Positions 1,152 through 61,854 are shown, counted from the first letter of the stretch. The stretch is DNA of 64,000 nt from Candidatus Hodarchaeota archaeon (GCA_048887225.1 JBHLJY010000004.1:64001-128000), one strand, 5' to 3'. Numbers and translations are program-made. Notes: generated by a model from the sequence alone, not told the origin.

Positions 1152-1713
1152 TTACAAATCCTCCTTTATTTTATCATCGTATTCTCCATTATTAATTCTC
1201 TCTTGAATGATCCTAGGGTCCTCTCCTTCAACAGTTAGGCCTACAGATAAGGCGGTTCCTAATACTGTTTTAACACCAGTTTTAAATGTTTTATCTAAAA
1301 AGATGTCTTTTTTAGCATTTGCGACCGAAATTATTTGGTCAAGAGTTAAATTACCAATTTTATCCTCTCCTGGATTTGAAGAACCCTTCTCAACTCCAAC
1401 TTCTTTCAATAATAATGAAGCTGTAGAAGGAGTTTCTACAAAAATTTCAAATTGTTTTGTCTCAGGATCACACTCAATTCTCACTGGAACAGTTAATCCT
1501 TTAAACACCATTGTTTTTTCGTTTACAGCATCAATGACATCCTTAATATTGATACCCGTTGGACCTTAAGCCAATAATTCGAAATGAATTATTTACAGCC
1601 GGTCCAATTGGAGGTCCTCCTGAAGCATTAGGGGTAATTTTCGAAGTGAAAGTTTATTATACACTCCCTCCAGTCACAAGGGCCTTTACTACAACCTTTC
1701 CTTTTTTACTCAT
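1152..1713 (-). CDS. rpl11: 50S ribosomal protein L11 (uL11), intron-split; exons 1713-1664, 1627-1595, 1566-1152; spliced product 165 aa
   Basis: The ORF track shows only the last 119 aa. Removing 1628-1663 and 1567-1594 gives MSKKGKVVVKALVTGGSASGGPPIGPAVGPTGINIKDVIDAVNEKTMVFKGLTVPVRI..., the conserved L11 N-terminus; 498 nt = 166 codons. Confidence 0.93.
1567..1594 (-). other. BHB-type intron 2 in rpl11 mRNA (28 nt, canonical)
   Basis: UUGGACC-GGCU-[GU^A]-AAUAAUUC-loop AUUUC-GAAUUAUU-GGCU-[UA^A]-GGUCCAA: 7-bp exon stem, 4-bp helix with 2 G-U pairs, 8-bp intron stem; excision restores the frame (GCT GTA GGT CCA, A-V-G-P). Confidence 0.9.
1628..1663 (-). other. BHB-type intron 1 in rpl11 mRNA (36 nt, relaxed exon-side helix)
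   Basis: Minus strand reads AGGG-[AG^U]-GUA...UAC-CCCU-[AA^U]. Central 4-bp helix AGGG/CCCU with two 3-nt bulges; carries in-frame TAA TAA; excision gives GGG AGT GCT (G-S-A). Confidence 0.82.
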
Positions 1714-1917
1714 CGCTATCAAATTATTATCTTAAATTTGTTTCAAAATATATCATTAAAGGTTTAGGAACGCATCGTTTTTTCAATAGAATTTATTTCA
1801 ATATCTCAATTATATTGAAACCGCTATAATTTGCGTCCTAAGTCTATAAGAAAATATTTTGAACTTAGTGTGTTGGAAAGTGAATTAGAATTAAAAAAGT
1901 TTATTAAAAGATATCGT

Positions 1918-2103
1918 TTAAAATCTGCAACATAATCTTCGACCATAGTCGAGATTGCTCTTCAAATATTCATTCTCCAGTATTTTCATAACTTTATCAT
2001 ACTCGAGATTTAACTTTTTTACAATATCTTCTATCTCAATACCAGGTGTAGATATCAATCTAAAAATCTCTTTTTTTACATCTTCATTAACTTCTTCAGT
2101 CAT
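1918..2103 (-). CDS. Small hypothetical protein, HTH-like, ending RRLCCRF
   Basis: 61-aa ORF co-oriented between the Fe-S protein and rpl11. Confidence 0.55.
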   Translation of the reverse strand: MTEEVNEDVKKEIFRLISTPGIEIEDIVKKLNLEYDKVMKILENEYLKSNLDYGRRLCCRF

Positions 2104-2163
2104 TGTTTTTTAGATAATAATTTCTATATTTTAATATTTAGCTTAATTTTTAAAAATAAAATT

Positions 2164-3228
2164 TTATTTCGAACTTTTTCTTTTACCTTCAATTATAGCC
2201 TTCCCTAATTCTAGTACTCTGTCGAAGGGTTCCTCACCATCTTTCCTTAGTTGTAGAATTATTGCTTCTTCTGGACAAACGTTAGCACATAATCCACACC
2301 CGAGGCATAGATCTGTATTAACTATTGCGAAATCTTCCAATTGTATTGCTTCAACTGGGCATCGTTCTACGCAATTACCACATCCAACACATGTTTCTCG
2401 ATCTATTATGGATTCGAACATTGCGTTTAGAAATCTATGTTTATCTAGTCCTTTTTGCGTTATTCCTTTCATAGATGCACAACAACAAGGACAGCAATTA
2501 CATATATTTGACAAGTGTTTGGAATTAACTCCTGCATGAATCAGGCCTGCATTGTCTGCTTCTTCAATAATATTTATAGCCTCCTCAGCAGAAATTTCCC
2601 TACCGACCCCATTTTCAATGTAATATTCAGCTGCAACCCCGAAGGATAAACAGTTTTCTATTGGACCATCGCAACCTTCACCGTTTAATTTTGCTTCTTT
2701 ACGGCAAATACATTCGTATACTGCTATTTTTCTGGCATTTTTAATACTCTCTTTGAGTTTATGGTAAGGGTACAGAACAGTATGAGCTTCTATTGTTTCT
2801 TCAACAGGAAGCACCTTGAATCCCGGTACATTACTTGCCCCCATTTCATTCATATATGCTAAATCATAATATTTTTTAAACATTTTTGCGAGCTCTTCAT
2901 CTAGTTTTCCAACGGAGTACTCATATAATCCAACCATAAACGGTGCTGAATTGTAAAGTGTCTTCCCATCTCGTCTAACACGGAAAATGAGTCCCTTTCT
3001 TGACATTGAATCTAATTTTTCTTCTACTTCTTTTATTTCCGATCCTACTCGTCTAGCAATTCGAGATGCTTTTTCGGGAATAGGAGTTAGGAATATTGCT
3101 ATTTTTGCTTCTTCTTCCGTAAAAAGTCTTTTCAAGATCTTGATTTCAATCCCGTTTGATGTTTTAGGATAGCCTAATGGGAACCGATCTAAAAATTCTC
3201 TTAACTTTAAGTAAGCCTTTTCAGACAT
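2164..3228 (-). CDS. 4Fe-4S dicluster-domain protein with N-terminal winged-helix region
   Basis: CICR, ICNCCPCCC and two CxxCxxCxxxCP motifs. Confidence 0.85.
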   Translation of the reverse strand: MSEKAYLKLREFLDRFPLGYPKTSNGIEIKILKRLFTEEEAKIAIFLTPIPEKASRIARRVGSEIKEVEEKLDSMSRKGLIFRVRRDGKTLYNSAPFMVGLYEYSVGKLDEELAKMFKKYYDLAYMNEMGASNVPGFKVLPVEETIEAHTVLYPYHKLKESIKNARKIAVYECICRKEAKLNGEGCDGPIENCLSFGVAAEYYIENGVGREISAEEAINIIEEADNAGLIHAGVNSKHLSNICNCCPCCCASMKGITQKGLDKHRFLNAMFESIIDRETCVGCGNCVERCPVEAIQLEDFAIVNTDLCLGCGLCANVCPEEAIILQLRKDGEEPFDRVLELGKAIIEGKRKSSK

Positions 3229-3355
3229 ATACTTTAACCTCAGTGCTTATTTTGAAATATTGAAAAATAAATAAGAATTTTATTTTTATCATCAATAGGA
3301 CTCTTATTAATTATGAAAAAACCATAGGTTAATTAAATTTATATTACTTATAGAT

Positions 3356-3955
3356 TTGATGAATAACGAAAAGGACTTATCCATCGTAGATTCTGATGAG
3401 AAAATCAATATCATTAATCAAATTCAAGAGATTCTAAATTATATTAAAGTAAAAAAATTTGTTAAATTAATACCAGAAGTTCGCACAAATATCGCAGGTG
3501 CTTTAAATAATGCAATGAAATTGGAGGATGTTGCCGGAGTTGATGGCAGAATTACAATTATCGATGGTATGCCAAAAGCTGCAGGTGATATTAAATTTGG
3601 AACCGCCGAACATACTGCTAGGTTGATTTTAACAACAAAAAAATTCGATAGTTCAATTAATTTTGTGATTAATCTGAGATATAGTCCTGAATTAATAGAA
3701 GCTATTCAAAAAAAAACTAATTTAGAAATGTTTGAGATAATTCGGGAAAATGAACGCGAAGAAAATCAAAAAAAGGAATTAACCACCATGCAGTGGCTAA
3801 TTAAGGAAAGTTTTATTGAAAAAGGAAAGATTCCAGATATCATTTGGGATAAAGGTGCAATCGGCAAAGAACCAATGATTAGATTGTTTGCAAGAAATTC
3901 AAATGATATGATAAAAAAACTAAGTAAAATTCTTGACCTAATTAATAGTGATTAA
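3356..3955 (+). CDS. Thiamine-phosphate synthase ThiN-family (ThiP_synth) domain protein
   Basis: LIPEVRTNIA, VAGVDGRI, FGTAEHTAR and DKGAIGKEPMI motifs; adjacent to thiW. Confidence 0.85.
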   Translation: MMNNEKDLSIVDSDEKINIINQIQEILNYIKVKKFVKLIPEVRTNIAGALNNAMKLEDVAGVDGRITIIDGMPKAAGDIKFGTAEHTARLILTTKKFDSSINFVINLRYSPELIEAIQKKTNLEMFEIIRENEREENQKKELTTMQWLIKESFIEKGKIPDIIWDKGAIGKEPMIRLFARNSNDMIKKLSKILDLINSD

Positions 3956-4048
3956 TATTTTAAATATAAAAATTTCATATAAATTTAAAAAATATTAAAA
4001 TAGGTTTATTAATTAATTAAAAAAAACCATCTGAATTATGTAGAAACC

Positions 4049-4621
4049 ATGAATGAAGAAATTTCGGAAAGATTAGATGTTAAAGCTAAAGAAAAAACAC
4101 TTTTACAGACTAATCTGACAAAAAGAGTAGCAACGGCTGGAATATTTATTGCGGTTGGGTTAATTTTAAGTTACTTAAATCCCTTTGCCTACTTTACAAT
4201 TTTTGGGACTAAAATCAATCCATTCGCTCACTTCATTAATGCAATGACAGGAGTTTTAATTGGACTATCATTTGCTTGTGTAGTTGCATTAGGTATCGCA
4301 ATTTTACGTTTTGTTCTTGGAATAGGTACAATCCACGCTTTCCATGGGGGGATCTCTGGAGCTGTTGTTGTTGGCCTATCGGCTTATATTTTACGAAAAA
4401 AATCTCCTAAACATGTAGAATTAGCAGCGTTTACTGAACCAATAGGTACAGTATTTATTGGAGGTACAATTGCTCAATTAATCGCACCTCTCGGAGGCAT
4501 TGAGGGTTTATTTATTTATTGGGGATTATTTGCTATGAGCTGTATACCTGGCTGCGTTTTAGGTTATTTAATGTTAAGAGTCCTAAAAAGAGCAGATATC
4601 ACATGGGAAGATTACTTTTAA
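4049..4621 (+). CDS. thiW: ECF transporter S component, ThiW (thiazole) family
   Basis: NPFAHFINAMTGVLIG, GTIHAFHGGISGA and EPIGTVFIG motifs; multiple TM segments. Confidence 0.82.
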   Translation: MNEEISERLDVKAKEKTLLQTNLTKRVATAGIFIAVGLILSYLNPFAYFTIFGTKINPFAHFINAMTGVLIGLSFACVVALGIAILRFVLGIGTIHAFHGGISGAVVVGLSAYILRKKSPKHVELAAFTEPIGTVFIGGTIAQLIAPLGGIEGLFIYWGLFAMSCIPGCVLGYLMLRVLKRADITWEDYF

Positions 4622-4643
4622 TAATTATTCCACTTTTTTTTTA

Positions 4644-5237
4644 ATGTTTATGAAATTCCGCGAGAATTTAGATTTCAACGAGTTTATTGGTCATCAAACT
4701 CTATTATATGGTGAAACAGATACAAAAAAGACCTATTATACAGCAAGATTTGTTCAATTTCTTCTAAAAGTTAAAAAAACTAACCCTAAAGATATAACCA
4801 TCTTAGATTTTGCCCCTAAATTGTTTAAATACTATGGTATAAGGATTGGAGGGAAAATCGAGGATTATTTTCCACAGAGCTTAAAATGTAATAATCTTGT
4901 TTTTAAAGGAGAAATAATACCACCCCGGCTAAGGGCAAGTAATAAAAGTGAGCTATATAATAATACCTGTAAAAACTACAAAAAAACTCACGAAATTTTA
5001 AAATTTTATAACGAGAATCCAACTCAAGTTTTAATAATTAACGATATTTCTATATATCTTCATCTTGGAAGTAAAAAATTTTTATTAGAAACAATTAAAA
5101 AAGCAGATACGTTTTTTGGAAATACTTATTACGGTTCTTTTATAGAGCGTAATTTTGCTAGTCTTTTTAGCTTGAAGGAAAAGCGTGTCGTTGAATCTCT
5201 CATTAAAAAAATTGAAAAGTCTTATTCTACGGATTAA
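4644..5237 (+). CDS. Hypothetical protein with degenerate P-loop (HerA/RecA-like fold)
   Basis: LLYGETDTKKT Walker A-like motif; LIIND Walker B-like motif. Confidence 0.55.
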   Translation: MFMKFRENLDFNEFIGHQTLLYGETDTKKTYYTARFVQFLLKVKKTNPKDITILDFAPKLFKYYGIRIGGKIEDYFPQSLKCNNLVFKGEIIPPRLRASNKSELYNNTCKNYKKTHEILKFYNENPTQVLIINDISIYLHLGSKKFLLETIKKADTFFGNTYYGSFIERNFASLFSLKEKRVVESLIKKIEKSYSTD

Positions 5238-5282
5238 ACACCTTCTAATAGTAAATTAAGGAGGAATAAAGCTTTTTGTCGT

Positions 5283-5597
5283 TTAGCCAATTTCCATCCC
5301 TTTATATTTTTGTTCTTGAACACTCATTATCCATTTTCTTATATTTTTTACCATTTTAAACACATCTGGTAGAGGACGAATTGATTTATTGACAAATTCA
5401 ACACCTTTCATAGAAATAGCATAATACTTCTTTCCATCTTTTTTAAGTGATTTTTCTAAATACCCTTTCTTAATTAACCTATTTATTTCTGTATAAACTG
5501 AAGATTTTCTATTCAAACCTTCTCTAATTTGCCTTTCCGACAATGGTGCTGAATAAAACAACACATATATAATCTTCTCTTCTGTTGTCCCAAGCAA
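5283..5597 (-). CDS. Winged-helix DNA-binding protein
   Basis: HTH plus wing pattern (SVYTEINRLIKKGYLEK...YYAISMKG). Confidence 0.65.
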   Translation of the reverse strand: MLGTTEEKIIYVLFYSAPLSERQIREGLNRKSSVYTEINRLIKKGYLEKSLKKDGKKYYAISMKGVEFVNKSIRPLPDVFKMVKNIRKWIMSVQEQKYKGMEIG

Positions 5598-5731
5598 ATT
5601 TGTTCATCTCAAAAAAAAAATCACTCATTCTTTTTCAATTTCTTCTTTAATTAATTCTTTATTTTATAGCAATTTATACTTATATATTTAAAAAATAAAT
5701 TTAAAACTATAATAATCAAGATGATGATTAT

Positions 5732-7294
5732 ATGAATCGGACTGAAACTGACTCTGAGCCCCCTTTAGAATTTACATTAGATAGAAAAAAAATAATAGCA
5801 AATTTAATGGAATTAATACCAAAAATGAAAGAACTTAATAAGAAATCTAAAGAGATCTTACCAACAATTCAAAAACCAAAATTGCAAGTTATAGCACCTG
5901 ATTCAAATACGATAAAAAATGATTTAGAAAAGATTTGTAGCGTCCCCCACAGGAGGATTGGAACAGAAGAAGCTCATGAGATTGAAAATTTTATTGAAAA
6001 AACATGTAGAAAATTAGGGCTTATTAATGTCAAAAAAGAAACATTTGAGATTATAAATTGGGTTGCGACTAATTGGAAGATATTAATTAAAGCAAATAAT
6101 GAGATTATTGAAATTCCATGTTTCTATGTTTTAAATACTGAATTTACAGATAAAAATGGGATTACTGCGCCTCTAATATATGTAGGAGCTGGTTCAAAAA
6201 AGGATTTTAAAAAAAAAGATGTTAATGGAAAGATTGTAGTAGCAGATATAGAATTCCCTACTCTACCATTAGGCAAATTACTAAAAATAGCAGAACCATA
6301 TTATATCGCTGATCCCACAAATACAATTGCTGATACAACAGAAATTATTCTAACTTTTGCTCTTACAAACTTTCCACCACAATCTTTAGGTGGAAAACCA
6401 AGAGAAGATTCAGTATATTGGCGAGCAGTACGTAGAGGTGCTTTAGGATTAATTCTGATCTTACGTGATGCTCCTACTAATATTAATTCTCATTGGGGGC
6501 CTTATGATGGTTCATTCAAACCTGTTCCTGCTTTATATGTTGGGAAATATGATGGAATGAAGGTTAAAGAATTGGTTCAAACAGAAGCCTCTCAAGGTAC
6601 TATAATCCTTAATGGATATAAAGAAATCAGTAAAGCAAACAATATATGGGGGATCTTACCTGGTCAATCAGAAGAAATGATAATGGTCTCATCTCATACT
6701 GATTCTGCATTCAAAGGAGCTTCTGAAGATGGTACAGGAGTAGCTATGATTCTTGCTCAATTAAGAGCATGGTCAAAAATTCCTAAAGAGGAAAGACCTA
6801 AATCTTTATTATTTGTTTTGACAGCAGGTCATCTTTACGGAGGTATTGGTGCAGAAACATTTGCGAAGAAATACAGAGATAGTTTATTAAGAAATGTTTT
6901 AGTTGATATAAATCTTGAGCATATGTGTGCTAAAGAGGTTGAAGAAGACCCAGAAACTCATAATTATCGATTTACAAACAACCTTGCATTAGGAGCAGTG
7001 TTTTTAACTCATAATGAAACCTTAGTTGCTCATACGATAAAAGCATTCAAAGAGCATAAAATAGAGCGTATGATTTTAATTCCAGAAAACTTCTTCGCTA
7101 CTCCTGCAATTGGAGAAGCAGGACATTTTACCAGTTATAGCGATTTAAAAATTATTCATTGGATACGATCGCCGTATTATCTTCTAACAGCAGAGGATAC
7201 TTTAGATAAAATTGCCATAGATAAATTACACCCAACTGCTCAATGTGTGACTGATTTAATTAATTCATTAATGCAGCTATCAACAAAACCTTAA
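5732..7294 (+). CDS. M28-family metallopeptidase with PA domain
   Basis: HRRIGT, SSHTDS, EDGTG and NLEH motifs; PA insert DVNGKIVV. Confidence 0.8.
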   Translation: MNRTETDSEPPLEFTLDRKKIIANLMELIPKMKELNKKSKEILPTIQKPKLQVIAPDSNTIKNDLEKICSVPHRRIGTEEAHEIENFIEKTCRKLGLINVKKETFEIINWVATNWKILIKANNEIIEIPCFYVLNTEFTDKNGITAPLIYVGAGSKKDFKKKDVNGKIVVADIEFPTLPLGKLLKIAEPYYIADPTNTIADTTEIILTFALTNFPPQSLGGKPREDSVYWRAVRRGALGLILILRDAPTNINSHWGPYDGSFKPVPALYVGKYDGMKVKELVQTEASQGTIILNGYKEISKANNIWGILPGQSEEMIMVSSHTDSAFKGASEDGTGVAMILAQLRAWSKIPKEERPKSLLFVLTAGHLYGGIGAETFAKKYRDSLLRNVLVDINLEHMCAKEVEEDPETHNYRFTNNLALGAVFLTHNETLVAHTIKAFKEHKIERMILIPENFFATPAIGEAGHFTSYSDLKIIHWIRSPYYLLTAEDTLDKIAIDKLHPTAQCVTDLINSLMQLSTKP

Positions 7295-7522
7295 TCGCGC
7301 TCTTTTTTAATAATAATTTGAAGATTTAATAAATTTTAGAATTATTATTGAAATATCGTTTTTAAATAATGTTTTAAAACTGAATCTATTTAGTCTTACT
7401 CACTTTATTTTTTTTTTAAAAATTTTATTGTCAAACATTAACTTTTTAATAAGATATTTTAACAGATAACTTATCTTTTATTATGAACTTTTTTTTATAG
7501 TTTCCTTTTTATAATTTTTTTA

Positions 7523-7768
7523 ATGTTAGATGAAATTGACTATATGAAACCATTGGAAAATTATAATTTAAAAATTAGATATATAAATGGACAAAAATTA
7601 TTAAAGGATATTCTGCATAAATTTAATCAAGAAAGTGTAATGAAGGATTTCTTAGAGGAGATTGAGGGCTTTATAAAAGGTATTCATGAAGTTTTTCCTA
7701 GATATTCAAAAGAAATAAAAATGCAATGTGAAAAAATACATCATTTTTTAAACTCAGAATCAGTCTAA
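7523..7768 (+). CDS. Hypothetical protein
   Basis: 81-aa ATG-initiated ORF in an otherwise empty intergenic region. Confidence 0.4.
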   Translation: MLDEIDYMKPLENYNLKIRYINGQKLLKDILHKFNQESVMKDFLEEIEGFIKGIHEVFPRYSKEIKMQCEKIHHFLNSESV

Positions 7769-11994: not shown

Positions 11995-12049
11995 ATTTCT
12001 AAATCTATTCAGAGAATTCTTTAGATAAAAAATCAATTTCGGTTAGATT

Positions 12050-22596: not shown

Positions 22597-23880
22597 GTGA
22601 AAGAGGACAACTCATTTAAAAATCAATTGTTTAGAAAAGATAGAGTTTTCAATTATGTTCAAAAATTTAGCTTTCCTCGACTCACTGGAACTGATGGAGA
22701 AAAAGAAGCTGTTGAACTGACTGTACAGACCTTTAAAGAAATAGGATTTAAGGATAATGAAATTCAAAGAGAACCGTTTGAATTATCAGATTTTTACTCT
22801 ACGACCTTAGTTAAATTAATTGCGATAATTAGTTTAAATTCTTTATTAATTTTTGTATTGGCAATATACCTTTACCCAATCTTTACATTTTTTATAATTG
22901 GGTTAATGTCTTTAATTGTTTTTCTAATTGTTAAAGGTTTAAAATATCCGGAAAAGAAAAGATTTTGGAGCGAATATTTTGGAAATACAGTTCAGGCCAC
23001 TAATGTTTTTTTAACAATTCCAGCGAAATTATTGCCAATAGAGGAAGCTGGAAATATTATAATTTCTGCTCATTTGGATTCAAAATCTCAAACATTTAAA
23101 ACTGTGTGGAGGATATTATCGTATAGAATTTGGTTATTTTGCGGTATTATTCTTGGTGGTTTTTACATTGCATTTCTTCTTTATACTTACAATATCGTAG
23201 AACTTAATTATCAAATTGTACAAATTGGCATTTGGACATTAACGGTTTTAATTTCTTTCTCGAATTTAATATTAATATTTCTAAACACTCATAACAAATC
23301 GCCAGGTGCTTTAGACAATGCTTCTGGCATGTCTATTGTATTTGAGTTGAGTAGATATTTTAAAGATCATAAATTAGATAATTTCAATATATGGTTTTGT
23401 CAATTTTCTGGAGAAGAATTAGGAACTATGGGCTCAAGAATTTTTGTAAATAATCGCGAAGACCAATTCGTTAAAGGTAAGGTTTTTCAATTAAATTTTG
23501 ATATGGTTTCTTCAGCTAAACGTAAAAAAAGAAATAGGGTTGAATATTTAAAATCGTATGGATTAATACCCCGTAAAAAAGTCGCCCCAATCCTTAGCAA
23601 GTATCTGGATAAAGCAGCATCGGAGGAAAATGTAAAAATTTGTGGTTTTCATATAACAACAGGAGCACATTTAGATTCTGTTGCATTTCATTTAAGAGGG
23701 TATAGTGCTCTTGATATTACGACTAGAGATGCTGCGTTTTATACCCATAATAAGGGGGATACTCCAGATAAAGTTGATCCTCGTGTTTTGGTAGAAGCAT
23801 GCATAATTGCTCGAAGAGTAATTTTAATGCTTGACAAAGATTATAAGATATTATGTGAAAATCGCGAAAGAGCATGCTAA
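22597..23880 (+). CDS. Membrane-bound M28-family peptidase
   Basis: SAHLDSK, GALDNASG and GEELG motifs; internal TM hairpins. Confidence 0.82.
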   Translation: MKEDNSFKNQLFRKDRVFNYVQKFSFPRLTGTDGEKEAVELTVQTFKEIGFKDNEIQREPFELSDFYSTTLVKLIAIISLNSLLIFVLAIYLYPIFTFFIIGLMSLIVFLIVKGLKYPEKKRFWSEYFGNTVQATNVFLTIPAKLLPIEEAGNIIISAHLDSKSQTFKTVWRILSYRIWLFCGIILGGFYIAFLLYTYNIVELNYQIVQIGIWTLTVLISFSNLILIFLNTHNKSPGALDNASGMSIVFELSRYFKDHKLDNFNIWFCQFSGEELGTMGSRIFVNNREDQFVKGKVFQLNFDMVSSAKRKKRNRVEYLKSYGLIPRKKVAPILSKYLDKAASEENVKICGFHITTGAHLDSVAFHLRGYSALDITTRDAAFYTHNKGDTPDKVDPRVLVEACIIARRVILMLDKDYKILCENRERAC

Positions 23881-25148
23881 AAAGAATGAAAAAGACAATA
23901 GCAGAAAAGATTTTGTTGGAACATTCGGATTTAAAAGAAATATCGCCCGGACAGTATATAGAGTGTGATATTGATTTAATAATGGTCCACGAGCAATTAG
24001 GTGGAAGAATTCATAAAGAATATGAAAAACTTGGAATTGATTATGTTTGGGATCCAAATAAAATCTTCTTTATACTGGATCATTGGGTTCCGGCCCCTAC
24101 GATATCCGCAGCTCAAATGCATCAAGATTGTAGAACCTTTGCCGAAAAGTATAATTTTATACATAATATGGGAATGGACAAGGGAATATGCCACCAAGTA
24201 TTACCAGAGATGGGATTTTCACGACCAGGAATGCTAATTGTTGGTTCTGATAGCCATACAACTACTTATGGGGCGTTTAATTGTTTATCTACAGGTATCG
24301 GAGCTACTGATGTTTCAGTTGTTTTTGCTACTGGTAATCTATGGTTTAAAGTCCCAGAATCATTTAAGATCAAATTATCTGGGGAATTACAAAGAGGAGT
24401 AATGTCGAAGGATTTTATCCTAACTTTAATTGGAGACATTTCTACTAAAGGTGCTATTTATAAATCACTGGAATTTCATGGAGAAGGGATGAAATCATTA
24501 TCAATTGATGGAAGAATGACAATTTCTAACATGATAGTAGAAGCTGGGGCAAAATTCGGTGTTTTTTTACCAGACAAAAAACTAGAAAAATGGCTAAAAA
24601 ACAGAACTAATGAACCATATAAATTTGTAACTCCTGATGATGGTGCAGTTTATGAAAAAACTATCGAGTATAACTTGTCAGAAATAACTCCTGCTGTGGC
24701 AAAACCGTCTAGTCCCGGTAATTTAGCTAAAATTGAAGAAGTAGAAGGAATCGAAATCGATCAGGCGTTCATTGGAAGCTGTACAAACGGTCGAATGGAA
24801 GATTTAAGAATTGCGGCAAAAATCCTAAAAGGTAAAAAAATTCATCCAAGAACAAGGTTAATCATAATTCCTGCCTCTAAGGAAATTTTTAAAAAAGCAT
24901 TAAAAGAAGAATTAATTGAAATTTTTATTGAAGCTGGTGCTGTAGTTGGAAATTCAACATGTGGTCCTTGCATAGGAGGACAGCTTGGCGTATTAGGAGC
25001 AGATGAAATTTGTATTAGTTCTACTAATAGAAATTTTATGGGAAGGATGGGAGATCCAAGCTCTGAAGTTTATCTCGCTTCTCCTGCGACAATTGCGGCT
25101 TCAGCTTTAAGAGGAAAAATTACCGATCCAAGGGAGGAGAGCTTTTAA
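23874..25148 (+). CDS. leuC: 3-isopropylmalate dehydratase / homoaconitase large subunit
   Basis: GICHQ, GSDSHTTTYGA, IGSCTNGR, CGPCIG and STNRNFMGRMG motifs; LeuC versus HacA substrate not resolvable. Confidence 0.88.
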   Translation: MLKRMKKTIAEKILLEHSDLKEISPGQYIECDIDLIMVHEQLGGRIHKEYEKLGIDYVWDPNKIFFILDHWVPAPTISAAQMHQDCRTFAEKYNFIHNMGMDKGICHQVLPEMGFSRPGMLIVGSDSHTTTYGAFNCLSTGIGATDVSVVFATGNLWFKVPESFKIKLSGELQRGVMSKDFILTLIGDISTKGAIYKSLEFHGEGMKSLSIDGRMTISNMIVEAGAKFGVFLPDKKLEKWLKNRTNEPYKFVTPDDGAVYEKTIEYNLSEITPAVAKPSSPGNLAKIEEVEGIEIDQAFIGSCTNGRMEDLRIAAKILKGKKIHPRTRLIIIPASKEIFKKALKEELIEIFIEAGAVVGNSTCGPCIGGQLGVLGADEICISSTNRNFMGRMGDPSSEVYLASPATIAASALRGKITDPREESF

Positions 25149-25649
25149 TTGATGGAAAAAATCGAAGGTTTTGCTTATCTTTTAGGAGATGATATTAATA
25201 CTGACGATATTGTACCTAGTCATACTTTAACTATGAGGAACCCTAATGAAATGGCAAGATGTACCCTTGAATTTATCGATCCTAGTTTTACTAAAAATGT
25301 TGATAAGGAAAATATTATAATTGCTGGTGAAAATTTCGGTACAGGAAGTTCACGTGAAGAAGCCGTTAATGTATTTAAAATTCTCGGAATTAAAGCAATT
25401 ATAGCAAAATCTTTTGCGAGAATTTATTTTAGGAATTTAATAAATGTAGGTATACCCGGAATAACTTTAAATTGGGATGAAAATTTATTTTCTAAAGGTG
25501 ATAATTTGGAAATTTCTCTCGAAAAAGGTATTATTTTCAATATAACTAAAAACATTAAAATTAAATTCACAAAACTGCCTGAATTTTTAACATTAATTTT
25601 AAATGAAGGTGGTATAATCAACCAGTTAAAGAAAATTCTCTCAAAATAA
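25149..25649 (+). CDS. leuD: 3-isopropylmalate dehydratase / homoaconitase small subunit
   Basis: DINTDDI, NFGTGSSRE and SFARIYFRN motifs. Confidence 0.88.
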   Translation: MMEKIEGFAYLLGDDINTDDIVPSHTLTMRNPNEMARCTLEFIDPSFTKNVDKENIIIAGENFGTGSSREEAVNVFKILGIKAIIAKSFARIYFRNLINVGIPGITLNWDENLFSKGDNLEISLEKGIIFNITKNIKIKFTKLPEFLTLILNEGGIINQLKKILSK

Positions 25650-25654
25650 GATCT

Positions 25655-26203
25655 TTAAAATAAATCTTGTATTTCTTTCTGAATTTTTTCAATTCTTTTT
25701 TTAGATTTCAATAAAATTTTACTCTTGCCGTATTTTGTAAACCAGGTCTGAAATCTCTCTTCAATTGTAACTTCTCTTCTTCCCGCCATGTGTTTATCTG
25801 CTAAACATACGATTTTTTCTTCTAACGTCTCTGGCAAATAACTAGAATCTTTGATTTTTAGGTTTAATTCAATAATATCTTCTTTATCTAAACCTCCTAA
25901 AATATGGGTTTCACATATCCTTGCAATTTTCTCTGGAAAACCTTTATCTCGCAATATTTTACCCCCTATTAAGGCATGATTAAAACCATGTGTTTTAGAT
26001 CTTCCAATGTCGTGTAAAAGGGCACCAATTTCTACCAACTCTTTATCAACCTTATATTTTCTTATTTTACTAACAATTTCTAAAGCTTTTTCAGCAACGT
26101 TCATTGAATGACGCCGAACTGAATATGGAACTTTTAATCTTTTCAATAATTCTAATACAAAATCCCGATTGGGTAAAACGGAAGCTTGCTCTTCTTTTAC
26201 CAT
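25655..26203 (-). CDS. HD-domain (HDIG) protein, archaeal TIGR00295-like
   Basis: LLHDIGRS, HALIG, HILGG and EEKIVCLADK motifs. Confidence 0.85.
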   Translation of the reverse strand: MVKEEQASVLPNRDFVLELLKRLKVPYSVRRHSMNVAEKALEIVSKIRKYKVDKELVEIGALLHDIGRSKTHGFNHALIGGKILRDKGFPEKIARICETHILGGLDKEDIIELNLKIKDSSYLPETLEEKIVCLADKHMAGRREVTIEERFQTWFTKYGKSKILLKSKKRIEKIQKEIQDLF

Positions 26204-26396
26204 TATAATTTATATATTAATACTTAAGTTTAAGTTTTAGTTTTTTAAAGAGATGATTAAAAATTTAAATAAACAAGCCTGCTATTGACGAGATTTTAAC
26301 CTAAGCAAAAAATTTTTAATTTATTCACGTTTTTTAAAACTAAATAAGTAGAAAAAGAACAAGCTCAATAAAAAAATAAAAAATAAGGCGGCTTAC

Positions 26397-30059: not shown

Positions 30060-30875
30060 TTATGATTTTGAAAATCCTCCATGATGAAATTCGATACTAA
30101 AATTTAGGTGGTTGTCCTCGCAATATTTCTTGATTTCTTCTTCTATCAAATCCCATCCTATACGATCTCTTCTTAACTCTTGATATGTAGATAAAAGTTT
30201 AGGGTAATTTTTTTTAATTATTTGGAAAATACGGGGAATATTATGAGGTCGAAAATTTAAATTTTCAAACATATAATAATCTGTAAAATTTATCGATTCT
30301 TGAATTATTTTGCGAAAATCTGTTATTTCTGGAAAAAACGGAGATAAGAAAACATAAGTCTTGATTTTATTATCATGTAGTTTTTTAATCACATTTAATC
30401 TTTCGATTGGTCTTGATGCCCCCCGTTCAATGACTTTTGAAAATTCCTCATCTAATGTACTAATTGAAATTCCAACTTCGATATTTTCAAATTTTTTAAA
30501 TAAATCAATATCTCTTGCTACAAATTTTGATTTAGTGAGAACTGTAACTCTTGCTTTAGTTCCAATAAGTTTTTCTAAGATTTTTCGAGTATTCTGATAC
30601 TTTAATTCTAAAGGAATATAGGGATCTGTTACTGAACTAAGTAAGATTGTCTTTTCATTATATTTCTCGGGCTTTATTTTGTTTAAATCAAAAATTTTAA
30701 TATCTAAAAATTGTCCCCACTTATCACCTTTATGATTTGTAAATCTAATCATGAATTCAGCATAACAATAAACACAACCATGCTGACACCCAATATAAGG
30801 ATTAATGACAAAATCTACTCCAGGTATATTGCTTTTAGTTATAATTCCTTTAGCTTCTCGAAAGTTGATTTTCAT
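30060..30875 (-). CDS. Radical SAM protein, SPL/Rv2578c-like DNA-repair family
   Basis: INPYIGCQHGCVYCYA, SVTDPY and LTKS motifs. Confidence 0.85.
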   Translation of the reverse strand: MKINFREAKGIITKSNIPGVDFVINPYIGCQHGCVYCYAEFMIRFTNHKGDKWGQFLDIKIFDLNKIKPEKYNEKTILLSSVTDPYIPLELKYQNTRKILEKLIGTKARVTVLTKSKFVARDIDLFKKFENIEVGISISTLDEEFSKVIERGASRPIERLNVIKKLHDNKIKTYVFLSPFFPEITDFRKIIQESINFTDYYMFENLNFRPHNIPRIFQIIKKNYPKLLSTYQELRRDRIGWDLIEEEIKKYCEDNHLNFSIEFHHGGFSKS

Positions 30876-30906
30876 ATAATAACTAGAGCATATAATTAAA
30901 AATAAA

Positions 30907-32451
30907 TCAGATGGCGTAAATTGAGAATTTTGTATCTAATTTTCTTCTTAGGATCCTAGGAAAATTGAAATTTTTAGAATAATAATTAAATATAAGAATA
31001 TCAATTCTTTTCTGTTCATTAATATAATTGTAATCTAAATCTCTTTTCTTTTCTTCAATTATTTTTTTGACAAGTTGCTCTACCAGCTCTTTAGTGTTAT
31101 TATCAGGTTCTATAAATGGTAGAGCATGAATACCTGTTATTTGAATACTGCTAGTATTATTTATGATTCCTTTAGCAAGGTAATTATATAAAGAGCTGTT
31201 TAATAGGCCTAACGCGTACTCTACTGAAATAGAATTGTTCTTAACAATAAATCCAATAGCTTTGTTCGAATCCCAATAACATCCACTTGGCATATAACGA
31301 GCTGCAAGTCTAGAGCTAACACCACTTATAACAATTCCTTCTTCTTCAAAGGGAACATTTTTAGGAATATCGTAAATTGGAAGTGAATTTTTATCCCATT
31401 CTAATGCTTCCATAATAGGTCTATAGTATTGATCTGCTCCACCTCTCTTCAAATATGGTTTCCATCTATCAGTTTCAAATTCATCCTTCGTTATGATTTT
31501 ATATTTCTTATTAGGATCTATTGTTTTCTCATTTCGCTTTTTAAAGATATTTGCTAATTTAGTCCCCTCAACGGCAGCAATATATTTTAAATTATTATGC
31601 GTATGCATACCGATATGCCCTTTAATGTGAGCTTCCAATCTTGACGAATTTTCAAATAAATTGATAATTTCTTCTTCTACATCGGTAAAAAACAAATTAT
31701 ATGGTAATAGATGATATTTCTTCTGTTTAAATTTATTTATAATTTTAGGTTTTTGATATTCATCTTCATTTTTAACTCTCGGGATGATTCTCATTATATT
31801 TTCTTTTCTCTGAATTCGATTCTCTTTACCAACACATTTCTCAAGGATTATTATAACAGGATTAGTACTCACATCTTGACTCTCAAAAAGATCTTTTGGT
31901 GCTAATAATATTTCGCTGATTTTACAATTTTCTAAAATGAATTTCCTAAATTTTGTGTGCGTATTGAGAGTTAGAAAGGAATCACTGATTATAAAACCTA
32001 ATTTTCCTCCATTTTTTAGCCGCCAAATGCTATTAATAATAAACATTGCGTAAGTTTCATGAGAATTTATTTTTCCGTATATTTTTCTTAATTTTTCTTT
32101 ATGATTACGGATATACACACTAGCTTTATTAAGATATGGAGGATTTCCAACAATAAAATCATATTCATTGTAAGAATCTGGATACATTGCTATTAATGTA
32201 TCTTGGGCTTTAAATGAAACATTTAATCTCTCAATATTTTTTTTATAATCTGGATTAATATCAAAAGAAGAAATTTGCTCTGATTTTATTCCAATTTCCA
32301 ATAATTTTTTAATAAAAATACCTGGACCTACACAAGGATCTAAAATTTTCTGGTTATATTCAATTGGACCTAATCTTGAAATAATATATTGGGCAGTTTT
32401 TGAAGGAGTTAAAACAGCTCCAAACTTTTTATTTCTAAACTTGATTACTAT
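30907..32451 (-). CDS. N6-adenine DNA methyltransferase (TaqI/Eco57I-like, gamma class) with C-terminal TRD; start extended to a putative ATA
   Basis: In-frame upstream of the called ORF lie FGAVLTP and LDPCVGPGIF (motifs X and I); VGNPPY motif IV; TaqI_C-like GLLNSSL. Confidence 0.82.
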   Translation of the reverse strand: MVIKFRNKKFGAVLTPSKTAQYIISRLGPIEYNQKILDPCVGPGIFIKKLLEIGIKSEQISSFDINPDYKKNIERLNVSFKAQDTLIAMYPDSYNEYDFIVGNPPYLNKASVYIRNHKEKLRKIYGKINSHETYAMFIINSIWRLKNGGKLGFIISDSFLTLNTHTKFRKFILENCKISEILLAPKDLFESQDVSTNPVIIILEKCVGKENRIQRKENIMRIIPRVKNEDEYQKPKIINKFKQKKYHLLPYNLFFTDVEEEIINLFENSSRLEAHIKGHIGMHTHNNLKYIAAVEGTKLANIFKKRNEKTIDPNKKYKIITKDEFETDRWKPYLKRGGADQYYRPIMEALEWDKNSLPIYDIPKNVPFEEEGIVISGVSSRLAARYMPSGCYWDSNKAIGFIVKNNSISVEYALGLLNSSLYNYLAKGIINNTSSIQITGIHALPFIEPDNNTKELVEQLVKKIIEEKKRDLDYNYINEQKRIDILIFNYYSKNFNFPRILRRKLDTKFSIYAI

Positions 32452-55900: not shown

Positions 55901-55925
55901 GTTTTTCCCTCGTTTTAAATTTCAC

Positions 55926-55939
55926 CCATAAATTTATGG
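55926..55939. promoter_or_regulatory. Palindrome CCATAAATTTATGG, putative operator upstream of the methyltransferase
   Basis: Same palindrome and same following AAAAATTGAC..GTATTTAAA context as at 47568. Confidence 0.6.
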
Positions 55940-56060
55940 ATTAATTAAAAAATTGACAAATTCGTATTTAAAGATTTAACAGGTTTTATATAGAAATAAT
56001 TTTTAATTATTTAATTATTGAATATTCTTAAAAAAGAAGAAATTTTTTTATACATTACAA

Positions 56061-56963
56061 ATGGAAAGTAAGTTAAAAAAATCTAAAAAAGATTTAATTA
56101 TTGGAAGCATTGTTATTATGCGCCCTGTCAATTGTCTTATGGGATCTCTCACAGTTATAATTGGTATTCTTAACACCCGTGCAGGTCTTCCGTTAGATAT
56201 CCTAATTATAAACATTATTTTAGGAGTCTTGACCTATTACTTTATTGCTGGCTCAGGTATGATTATAAACGATATATATGACTTACAAATTGACAAAATA
56301 AATAGACCTGAAAGACCAATCCCGAGTGGCTCAGTAAGCTTAACACAGGCTAAGGTATTATTCTTTTTAACGCTTGGTATAGGCATAATGATATCGATTA
56401 TTCACAGCCTAATCTTTTCATTAGGCATTTTTAACATAACCTTAGCAATTTTCTTTGGTTTTATTGGGTGGCTTTATTCCGCTTGGGGGAAAAAGCAAGG
56501 TTTTATTGGCAATATTATCGTTAGCATTTCATTTTCTATAGGGCTTATTTACGGAGCAATCTTAAATAGTTCAATCATTCCCATTTATATCTATTACTTC
56601 TTTTTGACTTCATTTTTCTTATTACTCTCCCGTGAAATTGTTAAAGGTTGCGAAGATATTGAAGGTGATAAGACAAAAGGGGTAAAAACTTTAGCGATTA
56701 AACTTGGAACTAAAAAAGCAATTGTTATATCTATAATATTTGAAATTTTGGCAATATTATTTTTTATTTTACCTCTTTTCACAGATATTATTAATCCAAT
56801 CTTATTTATGATTTTAATGATCTTTGGATTGCTAGTCGTAGGATTCGCGTTAATTTTATCACTGCGCAAAACTTTAGAAAGGAAAGATTTTAAAAAAATA
56901 AGCTTAATTTTAAAGGTAGGAGCATTCCTTGGATTAATTGCTTTTATTTTTGCGAGTATTTAA
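56061..56963 (+). CDS. UbiA-family prenyltransferase, probable DGGGP synthase
   Basis: RPVNC, NDIYDLQIDKINRPERPIPSG and REIVKGCEDIEGD motifs. Confidence 0.88.
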   Translation: MESKLKKSKKDLIIGSIVIMRPVNCLMGSLTVIIGILNTRAGLPLDILIINIILGVLTYYFIAGSGMIINDIYDLQIDKINRPERPIPSGSVSLTQAKVLFFLTLGIGIMISIIHSLIFSLGIFNITLAIFFGFIGWLYSAWGKKQGFIGNIIVSISFSIGLIYGAILNSSIIPIYIYYFFLTSFFLLLSREIVKGCEDIEGDKTKGVKTLAIKLGTKKAIVISIIFEILAILFFILPLFTDIINPILFMILMIFGLLVVGFALILSLRKTLERKDFKKISLILKVGAFLGLIAFIFASI

Positions 56964-58398
56964 TAACTTTTAAATTCACTTTTTTTAATATTTTTAAAAT
57001 TTCGCTAATTTCTTTTTTGTCGATTAATGATTTTAACTTATTCTTATATTCGGCATCTATACCAACAATTGGAAAAGTTTCAATTAATTTTTTTGCTTGA
57101 GTTAGACCTAGATATTTTCTAGTATATTCTGCTTTTGAATATTTATATGTTGTTAAAAATTCACTATCTAATTCCTTCCTAAAATGTTCTAAAATAAAAT
57201 TGAAATAGTTCTTTAATAATAATTGATCTTCAATTGAAATTTGAGGTTCTAAAAATATTTGAATAGGATGGGTACGGTAAGTATTAGAAGACACATAAAT
57301 CCCTTTTACGTCAAAATCGTCTGCTATTATACCAAGCCCAACTCGGCCTTCAATTGAACCTTTATCTACAGTTTGAACATACAATATATTTGATTCGATT
57401 TTTTTATTTAAAGCATCATTTATTTGGAGATTTAATCGTTTATATTCGTTATTTTTATAATTATTAGCATCAATCACAGAGATTTGATTAATTCCTTTAT
57501 TTTCTGATACTTCTTCTTTTAATAAATAATATTTTACTTTTAGTGGATTCCGAGTTTGATAATTCTCAAGAAACTCGTCAAATTCAGAACCGGCACGATA
57601 TTTGAATTTTGGATTTAATATATAATTTTTAGAGCTAATTTCATCTCGATACTTAATTTTTACACCCTTAAATTTTATAGGCTCAGCTCTCGGGACTTCT
57701 TTTCTTTTAAAAAAACCAATGCATATATTTGTCCCTGTGAATTCAAATATTTTTGTTTCGAATATAATCATTTTAAGAATTTCATAATATTTTAAAAAAT
57801 CTTGACGAAATTTATTAGAGACTGACGCTCCAAATAAAAAGTTAGAGGGAATAATATATATTAGGTTTTCAACTTTATTTCTTAAATCGTTAATTATGGC
57901 AATTTGATATAAATCTTGATAACCATTATTTTTGCCTTTGAAGTATTTTAGATATTTTTGAGTTTCTTTATGCTTTCTAATATATCCTAGATATAGGTAA
58001 GGAGGATTTGTAATATGGAAAATCGGAAATTCTCTGTTTTTCAAAAATTTAGGAAAGTTTTCCAAATTATCTCGGACTTTTATATTTTTTCTTGCGAGTT
58101 CAATAGGGATCCCGTATGATATAGCGTTATTAATACATTTTTGTACCATCTCTGGTTGTATATCAAATAGATAAATATGTTTTTTGAAATAATCTACCCT
58201 CTCTTCTGGTGATATTTCGTTTAAAATAGGTAAAACTAAATTCCCTTCACCAGCGTAAAGATCTACCCAAGCATATTTTCTTAATTTCTCTTTTATTTCT
58301 GGAAAAATATATTTTATAAGAATATCTATTGATGTTAAATGAACACCAAATGTTCTTCTTTCTTTTTTATCTTTAATTAAATTGCTTTTATCAACCAT
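56944..58398 (-). CDS. N6-adenine DNA methyltransferase (orphan)
   Basis: DLYAGEGNL motif I; ITNPPY motif IV; IIPSNFL. Confidence 0.8.
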   Translation of the reverse strand: MVDKSNLIKDKKERRTFGVHLTSIDILIKYIFPEIKEKLRKYAWVDLYAGEGNLVLPILNEISPEERVDYFKKHIYLFDIQPEMVQKCINNAISYGIPIELARKNIKVRDNLENFPKFLKNREFPIFHITNPPYLYLGYIRKHKETQKYLKYFKGKNNGYQDLYQIAIINDLRNKVENLIYIIPSNFLFGASVSNKFRQDFLKYYEILKMIIFETKIFEFTGTNICIGFFKRKEVPRAEPIKFKGVKIKYRDEISSKNYILNPKFKYRAGSEFDEFLENYQTRNPLKVKYYLLKEEVSENKGINQISVIDANNYKNNEYKRLNLQINDALNKKIESNILYVQTVDKGSIEGRVGLGIIADDFDVKGIYVSSNTYRTHPIQIFLEPQISIEDQLLLKNYFNFILEHFRKELDSEFLTTYKYSKAEYTRKYLGLTQAKKLIETFPIVGIDAEYKNKLKSLIDKKEISEILKILKKVNLKVIKYSQK

Positions 58399-58467
58399 TT
58401 AGATAGAATTAGCTATTTCTAATAATACAAGTATTTTAGGCAATTTAAGCAAAACTAAAAATTATCT

Positions 58468-59406: not shown

Positions 59407-59585
59407 ACTCTTTTCAAATATATGAGAATTGCATAAATATTCTTCAGATATTATTTTAATGAATATATTTTATGTAAATAAAAATTTTCTTAATTCGCAC
59501 ACTTAAACATTAATTTAGTTTTTATTTTAATTATATAATCTCAAATTTTTTTAACTAGACACTAATAATATTCTTTAGATTTAAC

Positions 59586-60416
59586 ATGAATTTGCCAAAA
59601 AATCTTGAACTTAAACTATATAATCTTATCTCTTTTCTAAAAAATAAGAAAATAATTGTTGCTTTCTCAGGAGGCGTAGATAGTTCACTTCTGTCTTATC
59701 TTTCAAAAAAATACGCAAAAGATACTCTACTTATAACTGAGCGTTCAATTCTATACCCTGAAGAAGAACTTGAATTATCAAAGTTATTTGCTAAAAAGCA
59801 TAATATCTCTCATATGATTATAGAACAAAATCCCCTAAATGATGAAAAATTTAAATTAAATCCAATTAATCGTTGCTATATTTGTAAAAAAGGACTTTAT
59901 AATGAAATTATTAAAATTAAAAATAACCAACATTTTGATATAATTTTAGATGGATCAAACTTAGATGACTTAAACGATTATCGTCCGGGCATGCAGGCCT
60001 TAGAAGAATTAGGTATTTTTACCCCTTATATCGAATTTAAAATTAATAAACAAGAAATTAGAGAAATAAGTAAATTCTTTGGTTTAGATGTTCAATCCAA
60101 ACCTTCAATGGCATGCTATTCTTCTCGGATACCGTACAATCAAATCATAAGCGAGAAAAAATTAGATTTAATTAGAGAAAGTGAAAGATTTCTAAAACAA
60201 ACTTTTAATTTAAAGCAATTGAGAGTAAGACTTCACGATGAAAATTTAGCACGTATAGAATTCTTAAAATCCGATTTACCTAGAATTTTAACCGATGTAA
60301 ATCTACAAAAAATAAAAAATAAATTCAAAGAACTTGGTTTTTATTACATAACAATTGATATAGAAGGTTTTCGCAGTGGCTCTATGAATGAAGTATTATG
60401 TCTTAAACAAGACTAA
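59586..60416 (+). CDS. larE: ATP-dependent sacrificial sulfur transferase LarE-like (TIGR00268)
   Basis: AFSGGVDSS, RCYICKK, DGSNLDD..DYRPG, ACYSSRIPY and GFRSGSMN motifs. Confidence 0.88.
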   Translation: MNLPKNLELKLYNLISFLKNKKIIVAFSGGVDSSLLSYLSKKYAKDTLLITERSILYPEEELELSKLFAKKHNISHMIIEQNPLNDEKFKLNPINRCYICKKGLYNEIIKIKNNQHFDIILDGSNLDDLNDYRPGMQALEELGIFTPYIEFKINKQEIREISKFFGLDVQSKPSMACYSSRIPYNQIISEKKLDLIRESERFLKQTFNLKQLRVRLHDENLARIEFLKSDLPRILTDVNLQKIKNKFKELGFYYITIDIEGFRSGSMNEVLCLKQD

Positions 60417-60427
60417 ACTTTAGGGTT

Positions 60428-61854
60428 TTAAGCCGTTAATTTTTCAATGTAGTCTATAACTTTTTTTCTCTTCTCTAACGCTTTAATTGCCGCCTTTTCA
60501 ATTCTATTTTCCATCTCATCGATTAATTTTGGAGTTTGTTCACCAATTTCCTGTTTTATTTTAGTATATGCAGATTCTCGAAACCTTGGCAATATATCTT
60601 TTTTATCTTCATTTTCAAAAATCATAGAAACTTTATTCGAATCATCAACGTACCCAATTTCCGCACATCTAATACCATTATTACCTAAATCAGAAATTAT
60701 TTTCTCAGAAACCTTTTCTGAACAATATATAAGAAGTGCGTCTAATGATACTCCCAAATAATCAACACCGACTTTATCTAATAACTTTAAAACTGTCGAA
60801 TTAACAAGTTTTCTAACTTCTTCTTCATAAATAGTAACACCACAATTTGCCTCATAATTTATCTCATATAAATCACCTCTAAGACCTCCATTGGTCACAT
60901 CGCACATGGCATGAATTTCATCTAAATTATCTGAATTTAAGATTATTTCACATGCTTCGAGGAATTTAACGTTCAACGTCTCTTTTACTACGTCATGATT
61001 ACCAGAATAGATTGCTGTTGTAGTAATCGTCCCACCTCCAGCACCTTCAGTCATTAAAATTTTATCTCCAACTTTAATATTTTTTCGAGCCAATAACGTA
61101 TCGCTTGCAAGACCTACAGCTGCCACACCTCCAACTAAACGATCTCCAATCACCATATCTCCTCCAATTCTTAATGTTGATCCTGCCGTTATTGGAACTT
61201 TTGCTATTTCGGAAACTGCTGAAATGCCCGCCATGAAATCGAACAATTTTCCAACATCAGAATCATCTCCTAAATGAATATCAACCATTATCGAAATAGG
61301 TTTTGCCCCTTTCACATATAGATCCCGAAGTGCAGCCCTCGATACGCTTATGTAAGCTCGTTACATGAAATTACGTGAAAGCCGCATACAAATGGAAAGT
61401 CGCTTAGACGAGAATGAATCCCTTCCATTTTGGAAACAATGATCAAATTATTAGGATCGTAAAGTTCTCCTTTTAATCCCTTTAAATCTCGTAGCCGAAC
61501 AGCTCCCGCATCATCCAAAGAACTAGGTGCTAAATATGCTTTTTGTTTGGTTTCAGATAATTCAGCAATTAATTTATGTACAAAAAAATCTCCCGCACCT
61601 CGACATCCCACTCCCTGTTTTCCGACCGAAACATCAGCATTATAAATATCTAATAATTCTTTAATGAAAGAATCTTTTACTGAACTGATATCACTCTTTT
61701 TGGATTCATCTAAAACTGCTTCAGCTAGCTTCTTTGCTAAATTTTGACCGATCTCTTTATAATCAAGATATTCTTGGACTAATCTTCTAATGATTTGTTG
61801 GTCAGAATTACCCTTTTTAATTAATCTTCTTGTTAAACCTTCTAAATCACTCAT
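60428..61854 (-). CDS. AIR synthase-related (PurM/ThiL/SelD superfamily, MJ0640-like) protein, intron-split; exons 61854-61371 and 61341-60428; spliced product 465 aa
   Basis: The two ORF-track fragments join after removing 29 nt: ...GVGCRGAGDF...DDAG...GIHSRLSDFPFVCGFHVTRAALRDLYVKGAKP...DVTNGGLRGD; 1398 nt = 466 codons. Confidence 0.88.
61342..61370 (-). other. BHB-type intron (29 nt, canonical) in the AIR-synthase-related gene
   Basis: GGCUUUC-ACGU-[AA^U]-UUcAUGUAA-loop CGAGC-UUACAUAA-GCGU-[AU^C]-GAGGGCU: 7-bp exon stem, 4-bp helix, 3-nt bulges; excision gives CAC GTA ACG AGG (H-V-T-R). Confidence 0.88.

Follow-up and report, generated by a model that had tools for sequence, protein, structure and literature searches.

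Three short inserts that interrupt two protein-coding genes in a 64,000-nucleotide (nt) stretch of a Candidatus Hodarchaeota archaeon genome (JBHLJY010000004.1:64001-128000, the whole of which is termed the window) are best explained as bulge-helix-bulge (BHB) introns in messenger RNA (mRNA), spliced by an EndA/RtcB-type route, a reading to which we assign a probability of about 0.88. Inserts of 36 and 28 nt, termed intron 1 and intron 2, lie in rpl11, which encodes ribosomal protein L11 (uL11), and the third insert, of 29 nt, lies in a PurM-like (AIR-synthase-related) gene. As the first-pass annotation of this DNA had proposed, each of the three inserts introduces stop codons or a frameshift, and all three display a 4-bp helix, two 3-nt bulges and an internal hairpin; when they are cut in silico after the second base of each bulge, the frame and the conserved residues are restored in every case, matching intron-free orthologues. 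Comparative evidence from about 100 related genomes strongly supports the intron reading; cleavage and ligation in vivo, and the enzymes that would be responsible for them, we infer from the sequence. The source metagenome-assembled genome measures 3.27 Mb and is 98% complete, and its closest public relatives are labelled Promethearchaeota, which are Loki-type Asgard archaea, from sediments. The BHB rule applied throughout comprises two 3-nt bulges with 4 bp between them and a cut between the second and third bulge bases, as published previously (PMC2738675, PMC5829648).

The rpl11 gene is located on the minus strand, starts at position 1713 and is broken twice. Removal of both inserts yields an L11 of 165 residues, whose N-terminus reads ...TGGSASGGPPIGPAVGPTGINIKD... 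in the register of intron-free orthologues. Exon 3 matches the profiles PF00298 (E = 1.8e-19) and PF03946 (model positions 21-58). In intron 1, the central helix pairs 1669-1666 with 1633-1630 and is flanked by bulges 1665-1663 and 1629-1627, while the interior comprises a 3-bp inner helix (1662-1660/1636-1634) and a hairpin (1651-1648/1642-1639). Intron 2 presents a 7-bp outer helix formed by the two exons (1607-1601/1565-1559), a central helix (1600-1597/1572-1569) between bulges 1596-1594 and 1568-1566, and an 8-bp inner hairpin (1593-1586/1580-1573), with a fold z-score of -4.46. Two G-U pairs are found in the intron 2 central helix, at positions where relatives have G-C and U-A.

The PurM-like gene extends over 60428..61854 on the minus strand, close to the right end of the window, and removal of the 29-nt insert yields a protein of 465 residues with the junction GFHVTRAALRDLYVKG. 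Since the match of exon 2 to PF00586 begins at model position 43 of 112, the domain is cut by the insert. The motif comprises a 10-bp outer helix (61386-61377/61340-61331), a central helix (61376-61373/61347-61344), bulges 61372-61370 and 61343-61341 and an inner hairpin (61366-61361/61355-61350), the inner helix consisting of 2 + 6 bp with a 1-nt bulge. The minimum-energy fold of this insert is exactly the arrangement of 10 bp and 4 bp with two 3-nt bulges and the inner hairpin. Thus, the strict form of the motif with helices on both sides (hBHBh') is present in the 28-nt and 29-nt inserts, and the 36-nt insert lacks it.

Inserts in L11 genes of relatives were located with a spliced protein-to-DNA aligner that permits jumps of 12-90 nt in any codon phase and is blind to BHB motifs. 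The input consisted of 87 distinct L11 loci, 75 of which were well aligned and were counted. This alignment revealed 52 inserts of 28-38 nt at four recurrent codons, termed sites A to D (Table 1); no insert was present in 36 genes, one in 28, two in nine and three in two. Beyond the 75-gene set, one locus truncated by a contig end has an extra site-D insert, 31 nt long. The window inserts occupy sites A and C. Once the inserts are removed, every gene displays the same conserved L11 N-terminus, and the sequence of exon 2 is fully conserved in the 75 relatives. L11 alleles of 90-93% amino-acid identity, found on metagenome contigs, lack both inserts and align with clean gaps of 36 and 28 nt, and intron 1 is missing, again as a clean 36-nt gap, in a syntenic relative (G009). 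The clean presence or absence in related orthologues that the first-pass annotation had proposed as a check was recovered at identical codons in many genomes.

For 46 of the 52 L11 inserts, the borders placed by this motif-free alignment coincide exactly with the 4-bp helix and the 3-nt bulges. In a border control, the motif was found at the true length in 47 of 55 calls and in 4, 4 and 7 of 55 when the length was off by -1, +1 and +2, respectively; a length of -2 gave 30 of 55 and is a poor control, its high value being due to C/G runs. Similarly, the PurM-like survey, which covered 80 family genomes with 30 loci examined closely, identified an insert of 29-30 nt at the same codon in 10 of the 30 loci, with a canonical BHB motif in all ten. 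The orthologues in the 80 genomes are mostly open frames of 462-476 residues, and approximately 19 orthologues end at about 303-313 residues, which corresponds to the insert site; the intron is missing from G009 and from most family members. The sequences that enter the covariation counts below are mutually related, so that those counts overstate independence and do not represent independent events.

The L11 inserts of all four sites have a hairpin in common, with a 5-nt loop that ends in TC and is closed by C-G (consensus approximately TTCATTTCGAA or ATCAAATCGAT). The shared loop motif is absent from the PurM-like insert and from the rtcB insert described below. It may reflect common descent, intron movement within L11 or a binding site. 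Minimum numbers of changes on a quick L11C+L1 tree were 11, 10, 3 and 12 for the four sites, near those of shuffled labels, indicating either very fast turnover or an unresolved tree, so that no count of gains and losses was drawn. The adjacent L1 gene gave a single contiguous match of 242 residues (726 nt) in 57 of 72 relatives' loci, the rest being partial or cut by contig ends. L1 is thus taken to carry few or no inserts, and the L11 N-terminus looks like a hot spot.

Covariation provides a second line of evidence. Overall, the proposed structures pair 97% of cells, against 16-53% in controls with slid partners. For the PurM-like intron in 10 genomes, 97.5% of cells are paired, against 26-53% when slid, and four pairs have changed on both sides; for L11 site C in six genomes the values are 97.4% against 16-50%, with three pairs changed on both sides, two of which belong to the exon-exon helix. 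Two exon-exon pairs of site C, located at third codon positions where the changes are synonymous, are complementary in all six intron alleles and in only 7% and 31% of 67 intron-free alleles. At site A, central pair 1, which joins a synonymous Gly position to an intron base, is A-T in seven genomes, T-A in six and T-G in three. In these alignments, synonymous sites of the exons are constrained in intron-bearing alleles only. At sites B and C, the outer helices arise from palindromes of the GGACC/GGTCC type, which code for the Gly-Pro repeats in the conserved L11 N-terminus. We propose that these palindromes would supply correctly spaced BHB helices and thereby favour intron retention or insertion in L11.

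The genome encodes the components of the predicted splicing pathway. The EndA alpha (contig C1:186656-187258) and beta (contig C3:60977-61579) genes encode 201 residues each, and both products match PF01974 and PF02778; on a reading of the sequences, one paralogue retains His and Lys in the context seen in catalytic subunits, and the other does not. Asgard EndA has been assigned to the (alpha-beta)2 type, whose specificity is broad and which reportedly tolerates relaxed motifs (PMC5829648); this fits the relaxed motif of site A. The genes for RtcB and Archease adjoin each other on opposite strands of contig C13, and rtcB is itself split by a BHB-shaped 29-nt insert with a TAG stop (C13:33458-33486, plus strand), the central helix of which is UUGG/CCAA and the hairpin 8 bp long; the insert falls within the conserved GGVGY-DINCG motif. 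The profile hidden Markov model match of RtcB is divided accordingly into model positions 1-47 and 47-426. The message for the ligase would thus need the ligase. In the proposed mechanism, exon and intron bases of the primary transcript would pair into the 4-bp helix between the two 3-nt bulges, held by the hairpin of the intron and also, in the 28-nt and 29-nt inserts, by the exon-exon helix. A heterotetrameric EndA, with a catalytic and a structural subunit, would then cut between bulge bases 2 and 3, and RtcB, assisted by Archease, would join the exons, full-length L11 and PurM-like enzyme being translatable only after this joining. With the genome 98% complete, ARAGORN identified only 18 uninterrupted transfer RNA (tRNA) genes; the majority must therefore contain interruptions, an apparently heavy BHB load that supports the intron reading. 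The borders that ARAGORN reports for canonical-loop tRNA introns in this genome were too inaccurate to calibrate the BHB rule.

Several observations weigh against the splicing of these inserts as BHB introns. Intron 1 has no closed outer helix, a property shared by 16 of 16 relatives, and its fold z-score of 0 indicates a stability no better than that of shuffled sequence; for these reasons it is regarded as a relaxed BHB motif. The G-U-rich central helix of intron 2 is not predicted by the thermodynamic model in the source genome, and as a proposed structure it rests on comparative support. The six L11 inserts that depart from the motif are site-B inserts with three of the four central pairs. 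No RNA runs matching window positions 1-6000 are listed, and an exact search of metagenome contigs for the spliced L11 and PurM-like junctions returned no match. The closest full-length L11 proteins in the database, of 165 residues, were considered as a possible source of complementary DNA evidence and rejected, as they represent intron-free DNA alleles.

Genome-wide, a search for BHB motifs combined with rescue of an open frame gave no usable excess over frame-shifted controls at any helix or energy threshold, which also counts against the reading; the strict scan of the genome had produced 96,203 matches. The lack of excess is attributed to background, because adjacent genes of operons also become joinable. 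In addition, the open-frame test misses introns near gene starts, and both L11 introns fail it. The suggestion in the first-pass annotation that such splicing might be genome-wide thus holds in part: the rtcB insert was confirmed and two further candidates lie on the contig of the window, but the scan showed no measurable excess and the window contains no more split genes. The first candidate, of 31 nt (C4:8760-8790, minus strand), interrupts a gene for an acyltransferase-3-like membrane protein close to its start and has a CUAG/CUAG central helix with AGA bulges; the second, of 36 nt (C4:215764-215799, plus strand), is in frame, contains a TAA stop and lies in a gene for an acyl-CoA dehydrogenase. 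Both are BHB-shaped, and long open frames result from their removal. Within the window, no further split genes were found by Pfam searches of pairs of open reading frames (ORFs) or by alignment with G009: five pairs of long ORFs all proved to be separate genes, and a 38-kb motif-free alignment contained frame-breaking intragenic indels only at L11 intron 1 and the PurM-like intron.

The inserts might leave the RNA through other enzymes, such as another endonuclease/ligase pair or a hairpin-recognising factor, although we consider this improbable. The common L11 hairpin loop, with its TC end and C-G closure, could be a protein-binding feature, and intron 1 is a poor BHB motif. However, the borders of 46 of the 52 L11 inserts and of all ten PurM-like inserts fall at the second/third base of 3-nt bulges 4 bp apart, which is the defining EndA geometry (PMC2738675), and (alpha-beta)2 EndA is reported to tolerate relaxed motifs (PMC5829648). 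Moreover, the PurM-like and rtcB inserts are without the loop motif.

The residue at the PurM-like junction bears on a different explanation, in which ribosomes bypass the inserts in unspliced message by programmed hopping or frameshifting. Phage T4 gene 60 is an example of programmed bypass. In favour of a hop, two of the inserts lie between short repeats: L11 intron 2 is bounded by GGCT...GGCT and the PurM-like insert by CGTA...CGTA. Were the ribosome to hop from one GTA codon of the PurM-like gene to the other, or were the insert excised via the flanking CGTA repeat, the junction would read Ser. In contrast, Thr, as predicted by the BHB cut, is found in 10 of 10 intron-bearing alleles after removal and in 17 of 20 intron-free orthologues; of the other three, two have Ser or Ala, and one is aligned one residue off yet also has Thr. 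The presence of Thr rather than Ser is evidence against slippage or ribosome hopping, and in these alignments it sets the predicted BHB borders apart from borders shifted by one base. At L11 intron 2, a hop would land on the second GCT, immediately ahead of a TAA. For an essential ribosomal protein, three bypasses in succession within one gene would be a very inefficient route, and the covariation of central and outer helices is left unexplained by bypass. Taken with these observations, ribosomal bypass is very unlikely.

An even less likely explanation is that the inserts inactivated the genes, leaving pseudogenes or proteins made as fragments. Gene callers would indeed give fragments, as the first-pass annotation anticipated, and public protein sets hold L11 entries of 119-146 residues. 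The completeness and pseudogene counts of these genomes are biased as a result. However, L11 is essential and is encoded by a single copy, with one C-domain match in the genome and no second L11 N-domain above the cut-off in the 98% complete assembly; the PurM-like exon 1 is likewise single-copy, so that the intact second copy considered in the earlier annotation as a possible objection was not found. The ratio of nonsynonymous to synonymous substitution rates (dN/dS) of the spliced L11 frame is 0.06-0.07 between intron-bearing genomes, indicating strong purifying selection. Across 39 intron-bearing genes, exons 1 and 2 show perfect conservation and nothing else breaks the frame, and the same inserts are retained at one and the same codon in different genera. 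Related strains from two other sediment metagenomes carry an extra TAC (plus strand) at window positions 1686-1687, which adds one Val codon to L11 exon 1. This insertion of 3 nt preserves the frame and thus indicates that the frame of the short exon 1 is maintained.

Least probable of all is that the inserts are assembly or sequencing artefacts, or that they are excised from the chromosome in living cells: all of the genomes are metagenome bins, and contigs drop rare variants, so that a minor excised form could be missed, but dozens of assemblies produced independently in different studies contain the inserts, with substitutions, and the insert helices covary. In particular, contigs from two other sediment studies cover 1372-2352 and 1121-2886 and carry both L11 inserts, no contig skipping them was found among the metagenome contigs that span the region, and a congeneric genome (G002) has all three inserts with substitutions. 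The possibility of an assembly artefact, raised with the original claim, is thus answered by independent DNA assemblies.

Other classes of intervening sequence were ruled out. Self-splicing group I and group II introns require a ribozyme core of hundreds of nucleotides, compared with 28-36 nt here; the inserts have no Rfam match, and no Rfam family reaches the gathering score in the window. Inteins are incompatible with inserts that carry stops or shift the frame. Descent from the cbf5 intron lineage was also rejected. In this genome cbf5 (TruB_N match, C13:47028-47369) lies within a single stop-free open frame of 337 residues, and the classic crenarchaeal mRNA intron is therefore absent; the present introns would work alike and are not positional homologues.

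The closest known system is the BHB intron in the cbf5 pre-mRNA of Crenarchaeota, described in Desulfurococcales and Sulfolobales (Watanabe 2002; Yoshinari 2006; Yokobori 2009, PMC2738675). Like the inserts described here, the cbf5 intron is short, lies in coding sequence, adopts a BHB or relaxed BHB motif whose cut falls after bulge base 2, has been tied to a hetero-oligomeric EndA and displays patchy gain and loss among relatives (PMC2738675). The present introns differ in belonging to Promethearchaeota and to other genes, among them rtcB, which encodes the ligase, and a gene for an essential ribosomal protein, and in reaching up to three in one gene at four recurrent sites. In addition, splicing of cbf5 has been shown experimentally, whereas the present introns are known from sequence. 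A further mRNA substrate of the archaeal splicing endonuclease is the BHB intron in the 5' untranslated region (UTR) of Haloferax volcanii HVO_1309, confirmed by circular-RNA sequencing and an in vitro assay (PMC7714728). The likeness to our inserts lies in the type of substrate, which is predicted for our inserts; the HVO_1309 intron is a single euryarchaeal case, located in an untranslated leader where the frame is uninterrupted (PMC7714728). The same 2020 paper stated that, besides its UTR case, cbf5 was the sole BHB intron reported in archaeal mRNA (PMC7714728).

The tRNA genes that Asgard archaea carry in heavily interrupted form, the subject of a preprint that covers tRNA genes only and no protein genes, resemble the present inserts in predicted motif and enzymes, size range, repeated gains and preference for motif-forming sites. 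The source genome, with its 18 uninterrupted tRNA genes, is apparently tRNA-intron-rich as well. In contrast with tRNA introns, the host here is an ORF, single-base accuracy would be needed to keep the frame, the outer helix derives from coding sequence and synonymous sites are co-adapted to it.

In eukaryotes, HAC1/XBP1 mRNA undergoes cytoplasmic splicing in which Ire1 cleaves and Trl1 or RtcB ligates under the control of stress. The present inserts would share with this system a spliceosome-independent, short coding intron, a change of frame, cuts defined by stem-loops and joining by a tRNA ligase. They differ in that HAC1/XBP1 involves Ire1 rather than EndA, paired stem-loops rather than a BHB motif, and regulation by stress. 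This unconventional splicing is mentioned in PMC4090602.

No report of BHB introns in Asgard protein genes was found in the searched literature, where the coding-sequence case is only cbf5. What would be new here, judging from the comparisons above, is an essential single-copy ribosomal protein gene with up to three BHB introns, in dozens of Asgard genomes, to which the exons are co-adapted. A wider proposal, which we put forward tentatively and would presently rate as doubtful, is that BHB introns in this Asgard family form a dynamic, repeatedly inserting population that colonises coding genes able to supply the helix, as the Gly-Pro palindromes of L11 do, and that core expression (L11, RtcB) depends on tRNA-type mRNA splicing. 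If this is true, interrupted protein genes would have a prokaryotic precedent that needs no spliceosome, located among the closest relatives of eukaryotes, and the rtcB intron might add a feedback loop. Should RNA data confirm the introns, the archaeal lineage nearest to eukaryotes would express its genes with mRNA splicing by the tRNA machinery as a regular step, which bears on the question of how coupled transcription and translation can accommodate interrupted genes.

Table 1. Exons and introns of the two interrupted genes (window coordinates) and recurrent insert sites of L11 genes (amino-acid positions).
Feature	Position	Strand	Description
rpl11 exon 1	1664..1713	-	ATG 1713-1711 to first two bases of codon 17; reads MSKKGKVVVKALVTGG(S), as in intron-free orthologues
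rpl11 intron 1 (site A)	1628..1663	-	36 nt, in frame, two TAA stops; relaxed BHB
rpl11 exon 2	1595..1627	-	33 nt; ASGGPPIGPA and parts of both flanking codons
rpl11 intron 2 (site C)	1567..1594	-	28 nt, frameshift; strict BHB
rpl11 exon 3	1152..1566	-	remaining N-domain and C-domain, stop codon included
PurM-like exon 1	61371..61854	-	single copy in genome; exact start codon tentative
PurM-like intron	61342..61370	-	29 nt, frameshift; strict BHB
PurM-like exon 2	60428..61341	-	stop codon included; PF00586 and PF02769 matches
L11 site A	aa 16		28-38 nt
L11 site B	aa 23		30-36 nt
L11 site C	aa 27		28-30 nt
L11 site D	aa 32/33		28-29 nt

The rpl11 gene opens an L11-L1-L10 operon on the minus strand at the left end of the window, in which it is followed by the genes for L1 (420-1148) and L10 (2-427). 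Elsewhere in the window, open frames continue in the same frame across single stops at 23859-25649 (plus strand; 429 then 166 residues) and at 25220-26209 (minus strand; 184, 76 and 67 residues); these frames may be simply adjacent or antisense. Two genes resembling N6-adenine DNA methylases, with Eco57I/TaqI-type domains, are located at 30060-32451 and 56594-58398 on the minus strand, one of them followed by a radical-SAM gene, and these loci probably serve restriction-modification or defence.

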